Assembly: GCA_036785375.1 (NCBI GenBank)
Contig: JAWMAR010000081.1
Location: 7,564,001-7,628,000 of the forward strand
Direction: 5' to 3'
Origin: Leucoraja ocellata
Lineage: Eukaryota
DNA length: 64,000 nt
A model generated the notes under the pieces. It was not told where the DNA came from and ran no database searches. It saw only the letters and a program-made list of their open reading frames with translations. Below, piece by piece: positions 2,952 through 59,210 of this stretch (position 1 is its first letter; every line of letters starts with the position of its first letter). The position numbers and the translations under genes are program-made.

Positions 2952-3163
2952 AGAGATCGACTCAAAGCTGGAGTAACTCAGCGGGACAGGCAGCCTCTCT
3001 GGAGAGAAGGGATGGGTGACGTTTTGTGTCGAGACTGAAGAAGGGTCTCGTCCAGAAACGTCACCACTTCCTTCTCTCCAGAGATGCTGCCTGTCCCACT
3101 GAGTTACTCCAGCTTTTTGTGTCTATCTTCTATTTAAACCAACATCTGCAGTTCCTTCTTACA
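2952..3163 (+). mobile_element. Penelope pLTR-derived hairpin micro-element
   Basis: About 60-bp inverted arms (gctggagtaactcagcgggacaggcagc... / ...gctgcctgtcccactgagttactccagc); hammerhead-like core at 3035-3062; near-TSD caccat(c/a)aacttc at 2939-2951 and 3164-3176. Confidence 0.8.
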
Positions 3164-8142: not shown

Positions 8143-9079
8143 ATACAACTTCATCTAAGCCCCTTGCCCTGTTAGATGCAGTGGTGTACTAATATTGCTG
8201 TTCTGATTTAAATACATTCATGGCGGCGCCTTAGACTGGTTTATCAAGGCAGCCTGCAAGCAACACACCACTAGATGCAACCTTCATCCAAAAGGTTGTC
8301 ATTACATCAGAATGGTTGGAGTGGTCTAAGACTGGCACAGACTTGCTGGGCCAAATGGCCTCTTTCTGTGTTGTAAGAAAATATGGGAAATATTCTGAGA
8401 AGCACTCTAGGGATCGTATGCCAGAATATTAAACAATTTTTGCTCTGACTTCCAGTTGAACAACAGAAACATTAATTTGTACATCTGTTGAACAAGGCAT
8501 GTTGGTGTTTTTAAATTTAAAATACTTTTGAATTCTTTGACTTCAAATTTGGTGATTTCACGTGAAATATTGCTTATTCTCTCTTTGGTTTCTGATATGT
8601 CTAATTACATTGAAAAACTATGCCTTTTTCTAATTTCCTGAGCTTTTCGAAGTCAATTAGAAATTGATATTTACTGGAATTCAACTCTCAAACTGAAGCT
8701 ACAAGTGATGGAAATATCAGGAGGGGTAGCATCTATGCAGAGTGTAGATTTGGTTAGTGACCTTTGGAACTAAGATGAAGTATTTCCAACTTTCCTGGTT
8801 TATTTCAGATTTATAACATCATCTGTACACGGATAGGAAAGATTTAGTGGGATATGGGTTTAACTTGGGGGTGTGGAGGGAGGGACTAGCCTAGATGGGG
8901 CATCTTGGTTGACATGCATGAGTTGGGCTGAAGGGCTTGTTTCCATACTGTTATGAGTATGCAGCATTTTTTTCCTGTGAATTATTGGTCAACAGTTTTA
9001 AAGTTGGTATTAAGTCATTTATAGCACTTGACAATAGAATATCTATTTGTCATTTTTTTCCCGTTAACCTTGTTTGTAG

Positions 9080-9232
9080 GAGAAGTGCTGCTCACACCAA
9101 CTCGAATTTATTCCAAGACCTTGCTGCCTATTCTGCGTCAGGGGCATGTGAAAGCCTACGCTCATATTACTGGAGGTGGACTGCTGGAAAATATTCCCAG
9201 AGTCCTTCCTGAAAAACTTGGTGTTGCATTAG
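9080..9232 (+). CDS. GART: GART exon (16), AIRS
   Basis: tgtag|GA...G|gtaag; [16 protein letters not shown]...[17 protein letters not shown]; 153 bp. Confidence 0.97.
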
Positions 9233-9869
9233 GTAAGATATACTACAGTGTGGTGTGTAATAGAAGCAGTCCATTCCTCCCATCATTTTCTGTATCTTGT
9301 TCAATGTCATTTCCATGGCAAGAGAAATTACTAAGCTTAATGTAAAGCTAATTTTGTAGAAAAGGAGATAAGGCACTTACATTATGTATGTTAGTAATAA
9401 CCGCTCTAGGAGAATGTGGAACTTTGGGATTGTGATTTAAATACCAATCTTACTGGATTTATTAAATTGTCCATCACTTTGGGTATCTAACAAGTTTGAT
9501 GATAAAATTCCCATTGGATGGTGCTAATCATGGCTTAAGACCAGAAGGTTGAAAGGCTTGTTAAATCACATGAAACTTGACTTGATTCACTGGACCAACT
9601 TCAAGAACTCTACTATAGGCATGGATTCTAATTCTGGGGATGAATTTGTGTTGCAATACAGTCAGTGTTGGAGATTAACTTCTGACACAGTTAATCCCTG
9701 ATATTATACAACCTAAGCTCTTAAATATTGTATCATCTTTTACAGTGAAATGACATACATTCCTCGCCTAAATATTCAGGGAAGGTCATATAAGCAAAGT
9801 GAAACACTGTGCTAAAGATTTATATTTTAAAAAAAAACTTACTTTGTTACTTCTGTTGATATTTAAAAG

Positions 9870-10073
9870 ATGCATCGCTTTGGAAGATTCCTGAAATATT
9901 TTCGTGGCTGCAAAGAACTGGTGCCCTTTCAGATGAGGAAATGGCTCGCACCTTTAATTGTGGAGTTGGAGCTGTGCTGATAGTGGACAAGGAGAATGCT
10001 GCAGACGTCCTGGGAAATGTACAAAGCCGCTGTGAGGCGTGGATCATTGGAACTGTTGTGCCGCACAAGACAG
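9870..10073 (+). CDS. GART: GART exon (17), AIRS C-terminus
   Basis: aaag|AT...G|gtttct; DASLWKIPEIFSWLQRTG...EEMARTFNCGVGAVLIV...AWIIGTV; 204 bp. Confidence 0.95.
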
Positions 10074-10228
10074 GTTTCTTACTATCTGTTAAATTTGTGG
10101 ACACCAGGGGGAGGTGCAGACAATGTCGGTTATTGGAATTCCTGTCTATTTTCAATTACTGAGTAGGATTAATGAAAAAACTCAGTGCTAATCTAAACTA
10201 GTTATTTGCTACTTTTTATGTTGGAAAT

Positions 10229-10864
10229 TTTTAGACTTTCGAGATACAGAGTAGAAACATAGGTGCAGGAGTAGGTCATTCGGCCCTTCGAGCCGAATAT
10301 GATCATGGCTGATTCATCCAACTCGGTATCCTGTATCCAACTCGGTATCATTCAATATGATCATGGCTGATCATCCAACTCGGTACCCTGTACCTGCCTT
10401 CTCTCCATACCCCCTGATCCCTTTAGCAACAAGGGCCACATCTAACTCCCTCTTAAATATAGCCAATGACCTGGCCTCAACTACCTTCTGTGGCAGAGAA
10501 TTCCAGAGATTCGCCATTGTGTGAAAAATGTTTTTCTCATCTCGGTCCTAAAAGATTTCCCCCTTATCCTTAAACTGTGACGCCTTGTTCTGGAGTAGAA
10601 ACGAGTCCTTCGGCCCACTGAGTCCGAGCTGACCTATGATCACGCGGACACCAATGCTATCCTTCCTGTACGCTGGGGTCAATTTACAGAAGTAAGTTAA
10701 CCTACAAATCCATACGTCTTTGGAGTGTGGGAGGAAACCGGAATACCTGGAGAAAACCCATACGAACGTACAAACTCCATACAGACAGCAGTCGTAGTCA
10801 GGATCGAACCCAGGTCTCTAGTGCTGTAAGGCAGCAACTCTACAGCTGCACCACCAAGCCACCC
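10229..10864 (-). mobile_element. V-SINE interrupted by a CR1 3' fragment (10259-10592)
   Basis: SINE halves on either side; CR1 flanked by 10-bp TSD gagtagaaac (10249-10258 and 10593-10602). Confidence 0.85.
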
Positions 10865-11132
10865 TAAATCATTAATGTGGTGTTGAAAGTGACCAGGAAT
10901 CTTTTTTTTTTCTTCTTTTCTTTGCCTGTTTAAATGTACCCATTCTCATGAGGAAATGTGTAAGAAGGCTGCTAGTGTTTATTTCAAGGGCTGGATTACT
11001 GTACTCCTGCTACTACTATGTTCTTAACCAATGTTTGGGGTTAAGGAGACCAACAAAGGTTTTGAAGGTTACACAGAAAAGCTGGAGAAACTCAGCGGGT
11101 GCAGCAGCATCTATGGAGCGAAGGAAATAGGC

Positions 11133-11160
11133 AACGTTTCGGGCCGAAACCCTTCTTCAG
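11133..11160 (-). ncRNA. Minimal hammerhead ribozyme core in Penelope 3' pLTR
   Basis: Minus strand CUGAAGA-A-GGGU(UUCG)GCCC-GAAAC-GUU. Confidence 0.6.
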
Positions 11161-11276
11161 ACTGATCGGGGATGGGGGTGGGTGGGGACAAGAAAGGGAA
11201 AAGGAGGAGTAGCCAGAAGGCTGGAGGGTGGGAGGAGACAGCAGGGGAGCTGAGGAAGGGGAGGAGACAGCAAGGA

Positions 11277-12635
11277 CTAACAGAATTGGGAGAATTCGAT
11301 GTTCATGCCCCGGGGGTGTAGAGTCCCCAAACGGAATATGAGGTGCTGTTCCTCCAGTTTCCGGTGCTGCTTGCTGTGGCCATGGAGGAGACCCAGGACA
11401 GAGAGGTCGGAGGCGGAGTGGGAGGGGGAGTTGAAGTGCTGAGCCACCGGGAGGTCAGCTTGGTTATTGCGGACCGAGCGGAGGTGTTCGGCGAAACGAT
11501 CGCCCAACCTCCGCTTGGTCTCACCGATATAGATCTGCTGGCATCTAGAGCAGCGGACGCAATAGATGAGGTTGGAAGAGATGCAGGTAAACCTCTGTCG
11601 CACCTGGAACGACTGCTTGGGTCCTTGAACGGAGTCGAGGGGGGAGGCAAAGGGACAAGTGTTGCATCTCCTGCGGCCGCAAGGGAAAGTGCCCGGGGAG
11701 GGGGTGGACCGAGAGGGAAGGGAAGAATTGACAAGGGAGTTATGGAGGGAGCGGTCTTTGCGGAAGGCAGATATGGGGGGAGATGGGAAGATGTGGCGAG
11801 TAGTGGGGTCACGTTGGAGGTGGCGAAACTGACGGAGGATTATTTTTTGTATGTGACGGCTGGTGGGGTGAAAGGTGAGGACTAGGGGGACTCGGCCCTT
11901 GTTGCGAGTGCGGGGATGGGGAGAGAGAGCAGTGTTGCGGGGTATGGAAGAGACCCTGGTGCGAGCCTCATTTATGGTGGAGGAGGGGAACCCCCGTTCC
12001 CTGAATAGTGAGGACATTTCAGATGTCCTGGTGTGGAACGCCTCATCCGTGGAGCAGATGCGGCGTAGACGGAGGAATTGGGAGTAGGGGATGGAGTCCT
12101 TACAGGAAGCAGGGTGGGAAGAAGTGTAGTCCAGATAGCCATGGGAGTCAGTGGGTTTATAGTGTATGTCGGTTAGAAGTCTATCACCTGCAATGGAGAT
12201 AGTGAGGTCAAGGAATGGTAGGGAAGTGTCGGAAATGGTCCAGGTGTATTTCAGTGCCGGATGGAAATTAGTGGTGAAGTGGATGAAGTCAGTCAGTTGT
12301 GTGCGGGTGCAGGAGGTGGCACCAAAGCAGTCGTCGATGTAGCGGAGGTAGAGGTTGGGGATGGGGCCCTGGTATGTATTGAACAAGGATTGCTCGACGT
12401 AACCTACAAATAGGCAGGCATAGCTGGGGCCCATGCGTGTGCCCATAGCTACGCCTTGTATTTGAAGGAAGTGGGAGGAGTCGAACGCGAAGTTATTGAG
12501 GGTAAGGACCAGCTCCGCTAGGCGGAGGAGAGTGTCAGTGGCTGGGTATGGGTTGCTTCTCTGGTCGAGGAAGAACCGGAGGGCTGTGAGACCATTGTGG
12601 TGGGGGATGGAGGTGTATAGTGATTGGACGTCCAT
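11277..12635 (-). CDS. Penelope-like reverse transcriptase + GIY-YIG endonuclease (N-terminally truncated, 452 aa open)
   Basis: RT motifs MDVQSLYTSIPH, QIQGVAMGTRMGPSYA and YLRYIDDCF; Cys linker CGRRRCNTC; NLIYCVRCSRC...YIGETKRRL...H...H...EEQHLIFRLGTLHPRGMN. Confidence 0.95.
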   Translation of the reverse strand: MDVQSLYTSIPHHNGLTALRFFLDQRSNPYPATDTLLRLAELVLTLNNFAFDSSHFLQIQGVAMGTRMGPSYACLFVGYVEQSLFNTYQGPIPNLYLRYIDDCFGATSCTRTQLTDFIHFTTNFHPALKYTWTISDTSLPFLDLTISIAGDRLLTDIHYKPTDSHGYLDYTSSHPASCKDSIPYSQFLRLRRICSTDEAFHTRTSEMSSLFRERGFPSSTINEARTRVSSIPRNTALSPHPRTRNKGRVPLVLTFHPTSRHIQKIILRQFRHLQRDPTTRHIFPSPPISAFRKDRSLHNSLVNSSLPSRSTPSPGTFPCGRRRCNTCPFASPLDSVQGPKQSFQVRQRFTCISSNLIYCVRCSRCQQIYIGETKRRLGDRFAEHLRSVRNNQADLPVAQHFNSPSHSASDLSVLGLLHGHSKQHRKLEEQHLIFRLGTLHPRGMNIEFSQFC

Positions 12636-12640
12636 GGTGA

Positions 12641-12839
12641 TTTTAAGCGGTGGATCTTCCGGCGGATAAAATATAATTGGGGTCCGTTGCAGGTCTGGGT
12701 AAGTGAGGCCTGAAGTTCAGGGATTTTAAGCAGTGGATCTTCCGGTGGATAATTTTAAGCGGTGGATCTTCCGGTGGATAATTTTAAGCGGTGGATCTTC
12801 CGGCGGATAATTTTAAGCGGTGGATCTTCCGGCGGATAA
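12641..12839. repeat. 29-bp repeat: one solo copy (12641-12669) plus four tandem copies (12724-12839)
   Basis: Unit ttttaagcggtggatcttccggcggataa with 0-2 substitutions. Confidence 0.95.
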
Positions 12840-13370
12840 TTTTTTTTCGGCGGATAAAGGTTTTGATTCCTTCTTGTAACTGCTGTTAGAAGATATCTAG
12901 TTGTGACATTGGGATATTGGAAGTTAAACAACCCTGTGTTGGTTAAGAACATAGTAGTAGCAGGAGTACAGTAATCCAGCCCTTGAAGCATCCTGTACCA
13001 ATAATCAAGATGCTGAACTTTTACCTCCAGTGCCTTTTTCCAGCACTCTTTCCATATTCCTCTATTCTCTGTAAAGCCCGGAAATTAAGTTCAGTGCTAC
13101 TTACCAGCACTCCCCTCCATACCCCCGTATCTCCTCACTACCCCCCCCCCCCCCCCCCCCCCTCCCCCTCCTCCGCCGATGCCCTGCAGCTGTCACAGGC
13201 CTCAAGCATCAGATTGCAGCAACCAGTGCACAGATCGGTGTTGGTGGACAGTGCTGCAGCACAAGCGAATCAGTGAGGAAATAGTAAAGATAAAACGTTG
13301 CCTTGGTTGAGATTCTTTAATTCGAGTATGATTCCTGAACTTTCAGCATGATGTACTTGTTTTGCATCAG

Positions 13371-13653
13371 GTCAGGCCGGGGGGAGGTCCCACCGCCACG
13401 GGTACCATGTAATCCCGGGCTACCTGCTCCATGGTTGGATGGTCGGCGACTAAACCATCTCCCCCACCTGGTTTGCCAGGTGAGGAAGGAACTGTGGACC
13501 CCCAGCAGGACCAAAAACAAAACCTGTCAAAGGGCGGATGATCTCCTAGCGAGCCAATGGCCATCCACACTTCAGTAGAAGTTGCGATCACTGTTGTACA
13601 TGGCATTGGAAGTCACGGTGCCCGTTGATGTTGTCAACAATGACGATGATGAT
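13371..13653 (+). mobile_element. Unclassified SINE-like element with (GAT)n tail, possibly RTE-associated
   Basis: GC-rich island ending tgacgatgatgat; tttgca lies near both flanks. Confidence 0.4.
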
Positions 13654-13704
13654 TTGCAGGAGAGATGACAAACGGTTAATGTAAAGGACAACCTATATTT
13701 ACTT

Positions 13705-13840
13705 TGAGACACGAAGCTGGAGTAACTGAGCGAGACAGGTAGCATCTCTGGAGATGGAATGGGTGACGTTTTGGGTCGAGATCCTTCTCTTTTTGTGTAT
13801 ATCTTTGGTTTAAACCAGCATCTGCAGTTCCTTCCTACTA
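13705..13840. mobile_element. Internally deleted Penelope pLTR micro-element
   Basis: Left arm gctggagtaactgagcgagacagg...gacgttttgggtcgag fused to the ...aaaccagcatctgcagttcc tail. Confidence 0.75.
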
Positions 13841-14129
13841 CATTCACTTTATTTGTAGTGTTTTGCCCTTTTCACTATGGAGTTTGCTGTTTAAAATCTG
13901 TTGAGGAAGAGAATATTGAGGCAGTGCTCCCTGTACCTGTGCCATTCTTATGGAAATGTTCAAATTATTTTTCCCTTTTGTATGAAAAGCAGCCAATTGT
14001 AACCTTTCATTAAAATGTGAAGTGTAGTGGAAAATATTATCAGTCGATGCCTGTTTGTTTAATATCCAATTTTTTGGGAACATTTTCTTAAAGAGGTTTT
14101 TAAAAATTACTTCATTCTCCTTTCAATAG

Positions 14130-14273
14130 GCTGTGAAAGGGTAGCTATTAAAAATCTCATGAAGACACTTCATCTAAGCCAACCGGTGGATGAAAGTACT
14201 GGAGGTGGTGACGTATCACAATGTCAAGGGCAGACTCGGAAAATGAGATTGGGTGTTCTTATCTCTGGAACAG
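14130..14273 (+). CDS. GART: GART exon (18), AIRS-GART linker and start of transformylase domain
   Basis: aatag|GC...G|gtgag; ends KMRLGVLISGT (PurN VLISG motif); 144 bp. Confidence 0.93.
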
Positions 14274-14419
14274 GTGAGTTGTTCCAATGTCAAATAAAAA
14301 TACATACAGAAAAGAGAACACACTATTCACTTACACCCTGAATAAAATTAAAGTGATTGTTTGACACTTTCTTCATTCCTGAACCTTGCTCAGGTTGATG
14401 TACACCATGGCTGCTTGTT

Positions 14420-15100
14420 GAGTCATAGAGTGATGTAGTGTGGAAATCGGCCCTTCGGCCCAACCCAAATCTTGCTGTACCAATTGGTACAGTGGCAATA
14501 AATGCAAACTTGAACTTGTGCCCACTGGTCAACATGTCCCAGCTACATTAGTCCCATCTGCCTGCATTTAATCTATTACCTCCAAACCTGTCCTATCCAT
14601 GTACCTGTCTGTTTCTTAAATGTTGGGATAGTCCCTGCCTCAACTACCTCCTCTGACAGCTTGTTGCATACGTCCACCATTCTTTATGTGAAAAAGTTAC
14701 CCCTCAGATTCCTGTTAAATCGTTTCCCCTTCAACCTAAACCTATGTCCTCTGGTCCTCGATTCACCTACTCTGGGCAAGAGACTGTGTACCTATCCCTC
14801 TTGTGATCTTATACATCTCACGGGAGGTGGGATGAAATAGTTGTTCTATAACAGATGACTAAAAAAGTTAGTTCTGTGGAGTTTGGAAGAATGAGGGGTA
14901 TTGTTGAATAGTTGAAAGATAAGAGTTGTTATTTGAAATAAGAGGTGCATAGAATATTTAATGATTGAGTAGATACATTTTTGAAGGACTTGGGAATAGA
15001 GAGCTCTGTGGAACTGGCATAGAAAAGTTGAGACCTGGGGCAGAGCAGCGATGATCGTATTGAATGGTGAGCCAGGTGGTCTACTCCTGCACTTTTCATG
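14420..15100. mobile_element. Two CR1 3' fragments (minus 14420-14820, plus 14870-15100)
   Basis: catagagtgat...cccttcggcc...aagttacccctcagattcct on minus; degraded plus copy ending ctactcctgcac. Confidence 0.7.
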
Positions 15101-15692
15101 ATTTCTTATATCCTGGCGAAAAGAAAAAAGGCAGTTGTCTTGATTTGCATATCAACAATATGAGTGAGTGGTGGACTCCAGAATAAAACCACGTAGGTCT
15201 TTGTGTGATCTTAAACCTGTTCATTATTTGCTGCCAGGTGATGGTCTTCAGCAAAAATTGCTGGAGTACAATCAGTAACTGACTGGTTCCACCAAGATGC
15301 GGGACAGAATGCCACAGATCCTTCTTCAAACTTTACAACTCCTCCCCCTTCTGTCATGGGGTAGACTGAGACTGAGACTGACTGCCTCCCCCCAATATTT
15401 GCACATCTCCCAAGCCTTTCCACTTGTCACTTTAATTTTGTGTTTCATGTATTTTGTTTTTTTATGACTGTTGGCAGATCAATTTCCCTCCGTGGATAAA
15501 TAAAGTTCTATCATATCGTATCGTCTTGCGTTTGAATATCCACTGTTCTGCCACATTTGCGACTCTTATTCCAGCATTAGGTGGGTGCTGTAGTGCTGGG
15601 AGTTGACAGCTATGTGTAACTGGGGAAAAGTACTGATTTCTTTTAATTTGGAATTGTGTAAGTTTTTTTTTTGACAGTCTTTGCCTTTTAAG

Positions 15693-15823
15693 GAACAAAC
15701 CTTCAGGCCATCATAGAACACACAAAGGATCCTGCCAGTCTTGCAGAAATAGTCATTGTTATTTCCAACAAAACTGGTGTAGAGGGACTGAAGAAATCAA
15801 CCCGAGCTGGCATTCCTACAAGG
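15693..15823 (+). CDS. GART: GART exon (19), GAR transformylase N-terminal part
   Basis: ttaag|GA...AGG|gtgag; GTNLQAIIEHTKDPASLAEIVIVISNKTGVEGLKKSTRAGIPTR; 131 bp. Confidence 0.96.
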
Positions 15824-15933
15824 GTGAGAACACTTCCGCATTTTGGTAGTATGGGCTTGTGCAATAGATGTAGTCAGTAGTTGTTGCATGTTAGGGCAAA
15901 AGTAAATGACCAGACTTGTAATGTTAAAATGGT

Positions 15934-16133
15934 NNNNNNNNNNNNNNNNNNNNNNNNNNNNNNNNNNNNNNNNNNNNNNNNNNNNNNNNNNNNNNNNNNN
16001 NNNNNNNNNNNNNNNNNNNNNNNNNNNNNNNNNNNNNNNNNNNNNNNNNNNNNNNNNNNNNNNNNNNNNNNNNNNNNNNNNNNNNNNNNNNNNNNNNNNN
16101 NNNNNNNNNNNNNNNNNNNNNNNNNNNNNNNNN
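15934..16133. other. Assembly gap (200 N)
   Basis: Run of N of round length, typical of a scaffold join. Confidence 0.99.
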
Positions 16134-34407: not shown

Positions 34408-35427
34408 AAAGATAGACACAAACTGCTGGAGTAACTCAGTGGGACAGGCTGAATCCCTGGAGAGAAGGAATGGGGGACATTTCAGGTTGAGACCCTTCTT
34501 CAGACTGAGTCAGGGGAGTGGGAGACAAGGTATGGAAGGGTAAGGTGTGAAAACGACAGATCAAAGCAGATATTAATCAAGGAAATGTAGAATGGTTCAT
34601 TGTTAACTGAGAGAAGGTGAAAATTAGGCATTTAATCAGTAAAATTATTTAGGAGAATGGTGAAACTAGTTGGAGAACTAGGGTGGGGGAAGGACGGAGA
34701 GAGAGGGAAAGTAAGGGTTACTTGAAGTTAGAGAATTCAACGTTCATACTGCTGGGTTGTAAGCTGCCCAAGCGAAATATGAGGTGCTGTACCTCCAATT
34801 TGTGTAGGGCCTCACTCTGCCAGTGGAGGAGGCCCAGGACAAAAAGGTCAGTAAGGTGAATGGTAGAGAGAGTTAAATTGTTTAGCAACTGGGAGATTGC
34901 CTAGGTTTGGCTTAGGCGGACTAAATGGAGATTTTTAGCTAAACGATCCTGCATTTGGTCTCGTCGATATATAGGGGTCCACACCTGGAACAGTGGATAC
35001 AGTAGATGCGGCACGAGGAGGTGCAAGTGAACCTCTGCCTCACCTGAAAGGACTGTCAGGGTCCGGGGATCGAGTCGAGGAAAGAGTTATCTCCCGGGGT
35101 TGCTCTCTCTCTCTGTCCCTCTCCCACTCTAGTCTTCTTGCTAATTTCACCATTTGTATTCCTTGGTTATCACCTCATCCCCAGCCACCAATGGGACATG
35201 GTGAGCTCCACCTTTTCTGAGTCATCGATGCAGGCTCTGCTTTGTTCTCTGCCTTCCCATACCACCAGTGCCCCCCCCCCCCTCCCTAACTCTTAGTCTG
35301 AAGAAGGGGCTCAAACCGAAACGTCACCCATTCCTTTTCTCCAGCGATGCTGCCTGACCTGCTGAGTTGCTCCAGCATTTTGTGTCTATATTCAGTGTAA
35401 ACCAACATTTGCAGTTCCTTCCTACAC
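34408..35427. mobile_element. Penelope remnant with inverted pLTRs
   Basis: Minus-strand GIY-YIG C-terminus (QHLIFRLGSLQPSSMNVEFSNF at about 34725-34800) with pLTR; second pLTR in opposite orientation; hammerhead-like cores at 34476-34503 (-) and 35298-35325 (+). Confidence 0.85.
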
Positions 35428-39002: not shown

Positions 39003-39225
39003 AAAATAGACTCAAAGTGCTGGCGTAACTCAGCGGGTCAGGCAGCATCTCTGGAGAACATGGATAGGCTATGTTCCAGGTTCCAGACCTGGCCAGTCTG
39101 ATGAAAGATCACCACCCAAAACCTTGTCTTTCCATGTTCTCCAGAGATGCTGCCTGACCCATTGAGATACTCCAGCAGTTTGTGTCTATTTTGGTATCTG
39201 CAGTTCCATGTGGCTTTGTTGTAAC
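39003..39225 (+). mobile_element. Penelope pLTR-derived hairpin micro-element (older)
   Basis: Inverted arms gggtcaggcagcatctctggagaacatgga / tccatgttctccagagatgctgcctgaccc; CTGATGA at 39098-39104. Confidence 0.8.
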
Positions 39226-49345: not shown

Positions 49346-50762
49346 AAGAAAGGTGTTAAATGCGTCATAGAGTCATAGAGTGATATAGTGTGGAAACAGG
49401 CCCTTCGGCCCAACTTGCCCACACCGGCTAACATGTCCTAGTTACACTAGTCCCACGTGCCTTGGATAGGTAGTAGGTAGTAGTACATTACATTACTTAG
49501 ATAGGTAGATAGGTAGTAGTACATTACAAGCAAAATAAGAGATAAAGGTTTAATTTGATATGTTGAAAAAATATGTGAATTAATTAACAAGAGAAGGAAT
49601 CTTGCCAAGAGAAGAAATCTTCCAACAATCTGATTTACATTGTGAAAGATTTATCCCCATAATTTTGTTGGGTTCTTGAAGGTGCTAATTCAGAGCTTTT
49701 GTATTTCTAATTGGTTTGTTACCATGTTATTAATGCTGAAACTCTGCCACTAACCTCATTTCCCTCCGGGGAGGAATAAAGTTCTATTGTATCGTATATT
49801 TATTTATGTTGAACAAATAGAGATCTCATGAGAAAAAGAGACTAATTAATCTACCTTGCATATCTCCATCTTAAACGAGCTCTTCCCAAACTGCTTTCGT
49901 GATTAATTCTGTTAGACAGGTTTAAGCAATTTTATTGCATTTAAAGACTGGATTATCTGAACAACATTAAAATTCCAGTGTTTGCTTCTCCATATCAATG
50001 TCAGAAATGTAGACATCTACTAGTGGAACAGCCCTGGAACAAGAAAATTGAATTATCTTGTGGATTCATAAGTCTTAATCATTGATTCATCTCTTCCCTA
50101 AACTGTAGCAATATTGCCAAGTGCTCAATGACGGAATGCAATGGAAATGATTCAAGGCTGTCTCACACTCAAGCTGGCTTCTTTTTTTAATGCAACCTCA
50201 TCCGTTCCATTGCCCATTGACTCCAGAGAGTGGTAGACACTGCCTGGTCTGTTTTTAAGTAAACTGATCTGTTTTGTAGTAAATGCCTACTATGTTCTGT
50301 GTGCTGAAGCAAAGCAAGAATTTCATTGTCCTATCAGGGACACATGACAATAAACTCACTTGAAGTTGAACTTGGTCCACCACAGGTACTAATCTCCCCA
50401 GCATCAAAAAGATCTAGAGGAGGCGTTGCCCCAAAAAACAGTTGGACAATACCCAAGGAAACATCCTTTCTTTATATTGTCATATCTTTTCAAATTATCG
50501 GAGGTCACTTTAAAACCAAATCTCTGACTAAATAATGCAATACATTAGTCGAAACAAAGAACTGCAGATGCTGGTTGCTGGATGCAATGCATTATCTTTT
50601 TTTCAATAAAGAAGAATGCAGGTTATTCATTTTTTGAGAACATAACTGACAGATCTTCTTCTGAAATGTCCACATTCATAAACAACAAAGGCAGGCTGAT
50701 TTCATTGCCTCGTCCAGGGAGGTTGAGAGATTTTTGTTTCAATCAATGGCAAAAAGAAAACT

Positions 50763-57935: not shown

Positions 57936-59210
57936 GCTATGTGGTGTCCTATGTTATATCATTGTGTTTCTCTCTGGCTACAGTTATGGATGGAAACAGA
58001 GAAGTGCACCAATGGAAGAAAGGTTTACCCATTCTGTATCTCTCACAAGAGAAACCATTTTGAATACTAATGGCAGAATGGTTAGATGTTCTCCAGAGTG
58101 CATGAATAAACATTGTCTCCATTTGCATGAAATAAATAACCGAGCAATAAAATAATGTTTGGGGTCGAATGATTTTTAAACTAAATGTAGCATAATATTT
58201 GTTGTTGTTTCCACTCTGATCTCTGCTCTGACTGACATCAGATAAGAGGATGGTGGTTAAAAACAGAAATCTTTCAAAATAAATGTTTGATTAGATCATC
58301 AGCTTTGCTGCTTAGATATAGATAAGTATAGCTTATTTATCTTGGGACAGATGGTTGAGGCTTCCAGCATGTCCCAGCCTGTAGCATTGACAGTTTGTGT
58401 TCAGCTAAGAAACTTGCTTTGCTTTAGATGCATGTTGTTAAAGTAGCCTTCTGATGATGCCAATAGAGGAAAAATATTATAAATCTGAAGGAACTGAGTG
58501 AACCCTGCACCATTCCTAATGAGTTTACTGACATCCATTCAAACATTAACCAGACCTTCTGTGGTATTCATCAAAATAATATCAATCCTGACCAAATTGC
58601 ACGGAATATTCTTCCCTTATATAATCTGGAATGATCCTGACTATATCTGGTGCACTGCACCCACATTGCCAAGTTTCTTTAGGCACAGTAAGGTAGAATT
58701 CCCTTTGTATTGCTTAAGTAGAGAGATTATACTGAATTATATATTTTAAGGTAACAAGGAACAGAAACTTTCTGTAGCAACTTTAGCATGTTGAAATATC
58801 TCACGCGCCAAATACAAACTACTGGTCAGGCAGCATCTGTGGAGGGAAATGGACAGATGGTAGAAGGCCAGCAGAGTTTGTACAAGAGCCGGAGAGGTAT
58901 TAGAGATGGGAGAAAGGGAAAGAGTCAGGGAGGCGCGGACTCCTTGCCAAGGAAATAAGCATGAAGGTGGAGGCACTGGAAAAAGTGTTCAACATCATGA
59001 CGGGCTTGGCATTAATTGAGATGAGGTGCAGGGATACAGTGGTAATGTCTCTGCTGAGAATAGACTGCTCAACATCAGGAAGGAGTAGGTCATGGAGGAT
59101 GGTGAAGACTTGGCAGAGGTTGGGGTGGGGGCAGAAATGAGATTGGAGGAGGGAAGTAATGTGGGGGTGGGGGGGGGGGGGGGGGGCGTAGGGAGGACTT
59201 AGGAGAGGTA

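Follow-up and report, generated by a model that had tools for sequence, protein, structure and literature searches.

A tandem array of element-derived 29-nt units at the 5' junction of a Penelope-like insertion in Leucoraja ocellata

The Penelope-like insertion within GART

The window analyzed is a stretch of 64,000 nucleotides of Leucoraja ocellata (assembly GCA_036785375.1, contig JAWMAR010000081.1, positions 7,564,001 to 7,628,000 of the forward strand). Flanking exons at window positions 9025-15830 match AIRS_C and GAR transformylase, identifying the host gene as GART, and a retroelement lies antisense within the intron that follows the AIRS C-terminal exon. The insert has a length of 1790 nt (11066-12855) and is situated between TSDs of 11 bp, at 11055-11065 beside the element 3' end and at 12856-12866 beside its 5' end, which are identical at 11/11 positions. 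On the minus strand it comprises a 5'-truncated Penelope ORF (11277-12639), with 453 open codons and a stop spanning RT motif A to GIY-YIG, followed by a 3' UTR/pLTR (11066-11276) that ends at a tail-less 3' site. The pLTR contains a candidate hammerhead-like minimal core at 11160-11136, which matches the pattern of such cores. An Rfam search of 10800-14000 returned no hammerhead match and only three weak matches, none of them meaningful, and the predicted fold of the pLTR region with this core was not significant.

A single open frame carries TMDVQSLY (RT motif A), YIDD and LIY...YIG. The sequence CGRRRCNTC at residue 320 of the remnant forms a CX4CxxC linker, and CSRC lies inside the GIY-YIG core. 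Pfam matches of the remnant ORF to RVT_1 and GIY-YIG were below their cut-offs; full-length relatives have both the RT and the GIY-YIG domain. The nearest named relatives of the element protein are from sharks and rays (64-71% identity), in line with a cartilaginous fish as host. Neptune and Nematis are defined by a CX2-5CxxC linker between RT and EN, and the EN+ Neptune-type definition includes two cysteines between GIY and YIG (PMC8557442). Judged by these motifs, the element is probably of the Neptune-type EN+ Penelope-like kind, the linker being found in Nematis as well. EN+ elements of the Neptune clade likewise combine RT, the CX2-5CxxC linker and GIY-YIG at the C-terminus with 5' truncation, a hammerhead-like core in the pLTR (a candidate core in the present copy) and a TSD (PMC8557442). 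That the insertion is young is suggested by its open frame, by its perfect TSD and by the CpG observed/expected ratio, which is 0.70 in the insert vs 0.41 in the window.

Outside the TSDs the insertion is bracketed by a perfect 49-bp inverted repeat (10983-11031 and 12939-12987), with arms 23 and 72 nt from the TSDs. Given this repeat, the empty site without the element would form a hairpin of ~200 bp. On its left side the repeat has a short patch between the copies of a 5-nt direct repeat, and no second copy of the inverted repeat was found in the window. It may represent a MITE-like element or an older scar of templated repair.

A BLAST search of the window detected 17 other hammerhead-type pLTR fragments between 2964 and 49333, with 3' ends of two classes, tail-less and tailed, and with several inverted pairs among them (e.g., 2964-3122 and 39019-39185). 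No TRF arrays were present within 100 nt of these 17 fragments, the true 5' ends of which may be farther out. Three further regions should be noted. An older Penelope copy at 34416-35400 consists of a pLTR end, an endonuclease fragment of 68% identity and an inverted pLTR with tail. A decayed fragment at 58850-59115 (minus strand) resembles the Penelope region upstream of RT and is without the peptide region described below. At 49461-49528, 128 nt past a pLTR fragment and after another repeat-like stretch, a 36-nt unit is present in 1.9 copies.

Layout and source of the 5' junction

At the 5' end, inside the TSDs, the RT frame is joined to an 83-nt piece (12640-12722, minus strand: PELQASLTQTCNGPQLYFIRRKIHRLK). 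Its frame is offset by 83 nt from that of RT and the piece is therefore out of frame. It is followed by four tandem copies of its 3'-most 29 nt, also on the minus strand (12723-12838), lying at 12723-12751, 12752-12780, 12781-12809 and 12810-12838 (the plus strand being the first-strand cDNA sense). TRF reported a period of 29, 4.2 copies, 97% matches and a score of 221. Both the out-of-frame joint and the four copies had been claimed in an earlier note on this DNA, and both were confirmed. Segment boundaries are ambiguous by 1 nt, the junction A being common to both sides. The array is real, far beyond chance and known from this single locus, and no 10-mer of the unit was found elsewhere in the window.

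The same note held that every segment restarts at one point and that the array closes with a partial copy. Five segments do restart at the full motif, while the sixth (12839-12858, minus strand) matches only the ATTTT of the unit start. Instead of being a simple partial copy, this irregular segment consists of an A, a T8 run and unit positions 21-31, its last three A's overlapping the TSD. An ATTTT direct repeat (5 nt) in the last unit and the sixth segment is spaced exactly 29 nt apart. Overlap amounts to 1 nt between units and 3 nt with the TSD. The five units differ at three places only, all of them CpG transitions. One of these is found both in copy 1 and in its neighbor, copy 2, for which independent decay gives P=0.12.

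To locate the source of the piece, 240 relatives of the element protein were gathered, 86 of which passed filters on length and identity and contributed their N-terminal parts to a profile. The piece encodes a peptide of 27 aa, which aligned to HMM positions 109-132 of 448, with 2/2000 shuffles scoring as high. An exhaustive search of 1.84 billion proteins gave 14 matches, of which the two with high identity were examined; the other 12, with 37-43% identity or no scored stretch and mostly long multi-stretch proteins, were left aside. The peptide matched residues 115-141 of P0254 (XP_059505880.1, Stegostoma tigrinum, zebra shark) once, at 67% identity. P0254 itself fits the N-terminal profile (E 2.5e-30) and aligns with the N-terminus of the full-length relative P0005 (E 1e-19). 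This bears out the suggestion of the earlier note that the piece comes from the element's own N-terminal ORF region, here placed at about codons 115-141. The single upstream occurrence expected in that note was also found at the protein level, with the peptide occurring once in each of 10 of the 12 close N-terminal relatives and repeated in 0/12. Between the piece and the RT junction lie 304-360 residues in the 85 full-length relatives and ~404-424 in the close relatives, so that ~1-1.3 kb was skipped.

Other searches with the piece were less informative. Pfam gave no match to the junction ORF, and when the peptide was compared by short BLAST with 120 distant full-length relatives, only weak matches resulted. 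MAFFT --addfragments aligned the peptide with the FYLLPKIHK motif, which lies ~60 residues ahead of the RT junction; this placement was rejected because P0250 and P0254 were also misplaced and the direct matches of 67-74% give the N-terminus. In a scan of bacterial and archaeal genomes, one Penelope RT/EN fragment of 50% identity was seen, truncated by a contig edge of an Endozoicomonas MAG (L001, 1-1111), which is likely eukaryotic DNA binned into a bacterial assembly; it gave no information on the codon at the restart.

On this protein-level evidence, the array is element-derived and not a host minisatellite. Nor does it correspond to the canonical Penelope tail, as discussed below. The unit corresponds to element coding sequence, and the relatives give no sign of a consensus that already holds the array. 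In sequence, the junction belongs to the type of the templated insertions and 5' extra nucleotides of retrotransposons, which is defined by added sequence that derives from the element or its flank with 0-2 nt of homology.

The point of restart carries a base that can be used as a tracer. The restart codon is Asn in 84/85 full-length relatives (one has Lys, and one further row is gapped) and in 11/11 close relatives that cover the site, and the window reads TTA AAA T at this point. Whichever Asn codon the source used, the cDNA has one T beyond the prediction, the latter being built on the proteins of relatives and not on family DNA. As all five full segments carry this same non-predicted base, they descend from one aberrant molecule. 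Candidates for that molecule are the first copy made as DNA, an RNA that had gained an A at its end and a mutated source, and repeated internal starts on an intact full-length RNA are unlikely.

A possible reason for the length of the unit was seen in the predicted structure of the cDNA. In the cDNA sense, a single-stranded DNA hairpin of 33 nt (12640-12672, plus strand) is predicted at -6.9 kcal/mol (z -3.17), which was equaled by 0/200 shuffles. The hairpin takes in the unit and four more bases; the base of its stem lies at the point of restart, and the 3' arm extends across the end of the unit. Neither the opposite DNA strand (z -0.89) nor the RNA sense (z -0.97) stands out, and the 83-nt RNA folds no better than its shuffles (z 0.02). 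A 6-bp closing stem of this kind is present at 152/63,760 window positions and at 20/2898 AT-only starts. It should be noted that the hairpin was spotted after the fact. The folding points to the cDNA strand as the structured species, and whichever model applies, the hairpin would offer a reason why the length is fixed at 29 nt.

Possible origins of the array

The best explanation, to which we give about an even chance, is that a single RT jump was followed by DNA-level stuttering during 5' joining and by later slippage. The element inserted with an 11-bp TSD, its ORF is cut at RT motif A and the next 83 nt are from about codons 115-141. One jump or skip of ~1-1.3 kb would have brought RT to this donor, with one extra base left where it landed. 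As a single strand, the cDNA of the piece would then fold into the 33-nt hairpin and the 3' overhang of the target would anneal by three A:T pairs at the A-run of the hairpin. This overhang would be extended, released and re-primed at least twice, producing first the irregular segment and after it one or more full units. Either the element RT acting on DNA or a host end-joining polymerase could have carried out this synthesis. Final joining to the cDNA end would take place by one base pair, and some of the four units may have been added afterward by slippage over the ATTTT direct repeat.

The number of events can accordingly be small. The earlier note proposed that RT had jumped five or more times onto a single RNA end, whereas the structure requires no more than one long jump and two rounds of re-copying. 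At insertion, only that jump, a single unit and the irregular segment need have arisen, and the ATTTT repeat would allow slippage to make the other three units. The CpG change shared by copies 1 and 2 lends weak support to a later duplication. Slippage cannot have done all of the work. From the repeat spacings it could not make the first 29-nt unit, and pure post-insertion slippage from the piece and the sixth segment was rejected, since the repeats would give units of 83 or 72 nt.

The four units have identical ends and the TSD microhomology falls at the same end. DNA-level re-copying would explain the shared base, the identical junctions and this coincidence together, the non-predicted base following without further assumptions as it would be copied from the first DNA copy. 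The shared base and a hairpin that is predicted for the cDNA only thus fit DNA re-copying at least as well as RT jumps. Against this, re-priming would depend on pairing of 1 nt only, inside a predicted stem, and copying would have to stop repeatedly at exactly the junction of RT and piece, for which a barrier such as a remaining RNA:DNA hybrid must be assumed. In addition, the shared CpG change is not significant alone (P=0.12), the cDNA hairpin could equally help RT to release RNA, and the argument from the extra base is protein-based, with 1/85 relatives having Lys at the site. The T8 run fits an oligo(A)-tailed RNA end and untemplated addition of A equally.

Precedents are available for the separate parts of this scheme. 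Extra nucleotides at the 5' ends of zebrafish LINEs are templated by annealing from flanking genomic or LINE DNA (PMC4760211), and further LINE 5' extra nucleotides have been described (PMC4245944). The ZfL2-1 and ZfL2-2 junctions resemble the present one in having sequence templated by element DNA with microhomology of 1-2 nt (PMC4760211, PMC4245944). They belong to another retroelement class, and the available text of these reports describes neither a regular array of 4-5 copies of 29 nt nor a donor 1 kb upstream. In the model for Pol theta, iterative cycles of priming, extension and dissociation proceed with 1-nt homology (PMC4032859). Single-nucleotide homology and iterative cycles beside a break are thus common to both cases; the Pol theta inserts lie at deletion junctions, whereas a clean TSD and fixed unit ends are found here (PMC4032859).

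The alternative closest to the earlier note is that the Penelope RT made two to five restarts on one RNA 3' end, that of a broken, oligo-A-tailed transcript fragment, with a hairpin of the nascent cDNA stripping the product off the template after 29-30 nt in a telomerase-like manner. We regard this as a serious rival, though a less likely one than the DNA-level reading, and that all five restarts were RNA-templated is doubtful. All segments start at one point and one A:U pair is possible at each junction, where the A fits Phe TTC on the RT side (Phe in 152/189 relatives) and Leu CTC on the piece side. R2 RT jumps via one such pair (PMC8857657) and makes head-to-tail tandem copies (PMC11371274), and the Penelope RT of Anolis starts at fixed internal RNA sites without homology (PMC11167929). 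The T8 start of the sixth segment resembles a copied A tail, and the cDNA hairpin closes right at the stop point. On the other hand, five independent jumps would have to leave identical junctions and one and the same non-consensus base, copying in the first pass went on for 54 nt beyond the supposed stop, and neither an alignment repeat longer than 1 nt nor an RNA boundary structure is visible. The mutation common to adjacent copies also points to some later duplication. The likeness to R2/BoMoC lies in the jump onto an RNA 3' end, the +1 pairing and the head-to-tail products (PMC8857657, PMC11371274). It does not extend to the stop, as R2 copies whole added templates to the 5' end in these reports, whereas the copying proposed here would halt within a template already read through once.

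It is improbable that the deletion and array are older, having been acquired in an internally deleted source subfamily and retrotransposed ready-made. Such an origin would explain the non-consensus base and the identical junctions together, and internally deleted, complex Penelope copies have been described (PMC3846280). However, the insertion ends exactly in the array, with the irregular segment lying over the TSD as if born at the junction. An active ORF could not hold the array either, as a unit of 29 nt is no whole number of codons and stops occur in the repeat, and 0/12 close N-terminal relatives repeat the peptide.

The possibility that the 29-mer is the canonical Penelope tail of 30-40 nt, and the block a tiny ordinary partial tandem (pLTR), is remote. 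The length is near 29 nt, and tails inside the 5' ORF have been reported. In Anolis Poseidon, two fixed points within the 5' ORF serve as start sites of reverse transcription and are separated by 30-40 nt, which make up the optional tail (PMC11167929), and the tail of rotifer Pen2a also lies inside the 5' ORF (PMC3846280). Poseidon and the present array thus have in common a fixed start within the 5' ORF and a ~30-nt unit, but the fixed sites of Poseidon define the 3' end of insertions, whereas the fixed site here is at the 5' junction and the tail of this family is found at the pLTR end (PMC11167929). This reading is largely refuted by the copies in the window, in which 7/17 pLTR fragments continue, by eye, into a common extension directly past the pLTR end that is unrelated to the 29-mer; the studied copy stops at the tail-less site. 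Moreover, the 29-mer sits ~400 nt into the ORF and the block is without pLTR.

An assembly artefact or an unrelated host minisatellite is hardly credible: the copy number does rest on the assembly, with a gap 3 kb away, but the unit is element coding sequence and CpG transitions are the sole differences among the copies (for two independent events, the chance of this is 0.005), from which at least three unit types are likely real. The gap, of 200 N at 15934-16133, is next to a low-complexity tract rich in GA. An origin by rolling-circle copying, from an RNA circle of 29 nt, was rejected, there being no match to a ribozyme core near the unit and the first pass being linear and longer.

Comparison with telomerase and significance

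The comparison with telomerase drawn in the earlier note has a sound basis, as Penelope RTs are the closest eukaryotic relatives of TERT (PMC8557442, PMC12632851). The hallmarks of telomerase RNA are an alignment segment and a template boundary element (PMC12632851). In the visible sequence, the contiguous match at the 29-nt offset is 1 nt at most, with the native RNA 3' of the restart lying outside the window. No template boundary element was found, the 83-nt RNA being no more structured than its shuffles and the first pass having continued 54 nt past the boundary. Nor is there a dedicated template RNA at a chromosome end: the template derives from the ORF, and the insertion lies within an intron and has a TSD. 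The array therefore shares with telomerase and with DRT10 a tandem product from a short template and a related RT, and differs from what is described for them in having no dedicated RNA, no visible alignment segment or boundary element, an interstitial position and a single event (PMC12632851). The product resembles repeat addition and should not be filed as telomerase-type activity. It is unlikely, in our estimate, that a Penelope RT performed true repeat addition in vivo by re-engaging one oligo-A-tailed RNA end several times; were this so, the cDNA hairpin would set the 29-nt cycle and a minisatellite would have been written without a dedicated template RNA.

The usual 5' additions of Penelope elements are partial tandems, inverted pLTRs or a tail of 30-40 nt (PMC8557442). 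Here, the addition is a piece of internal ORF with a short array in the same orientation. In the literature searched, which was mostly without subscription papers, we found no description of short tandem arrays at the 5' junctions of Penelope elements. The junction is regarded as a well-defined scar, known in its general kind but unusual in its regularity, with its origin from the element shown and with a single locus known.

The completion of a Penelope insertion, namely second-strand synthesis and 5' joining, is described as still without experimental validation (PMC11167929), and the junction records this step in unusual detail. It also provides a natural test substrate, as the tracer base and the defined hairpin can separate re-copying of RNA from that of DNA. 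Were the copying to have taken place on DNA, templated junction scars of the LINE type would extend to Penelope elements, which is of modest interest. If it took place on RNA, the array would be a sign of repeat-addition behavior in a Penelope RT and would bear on the origin of telomerase processivity and on the birth of minisatellites.
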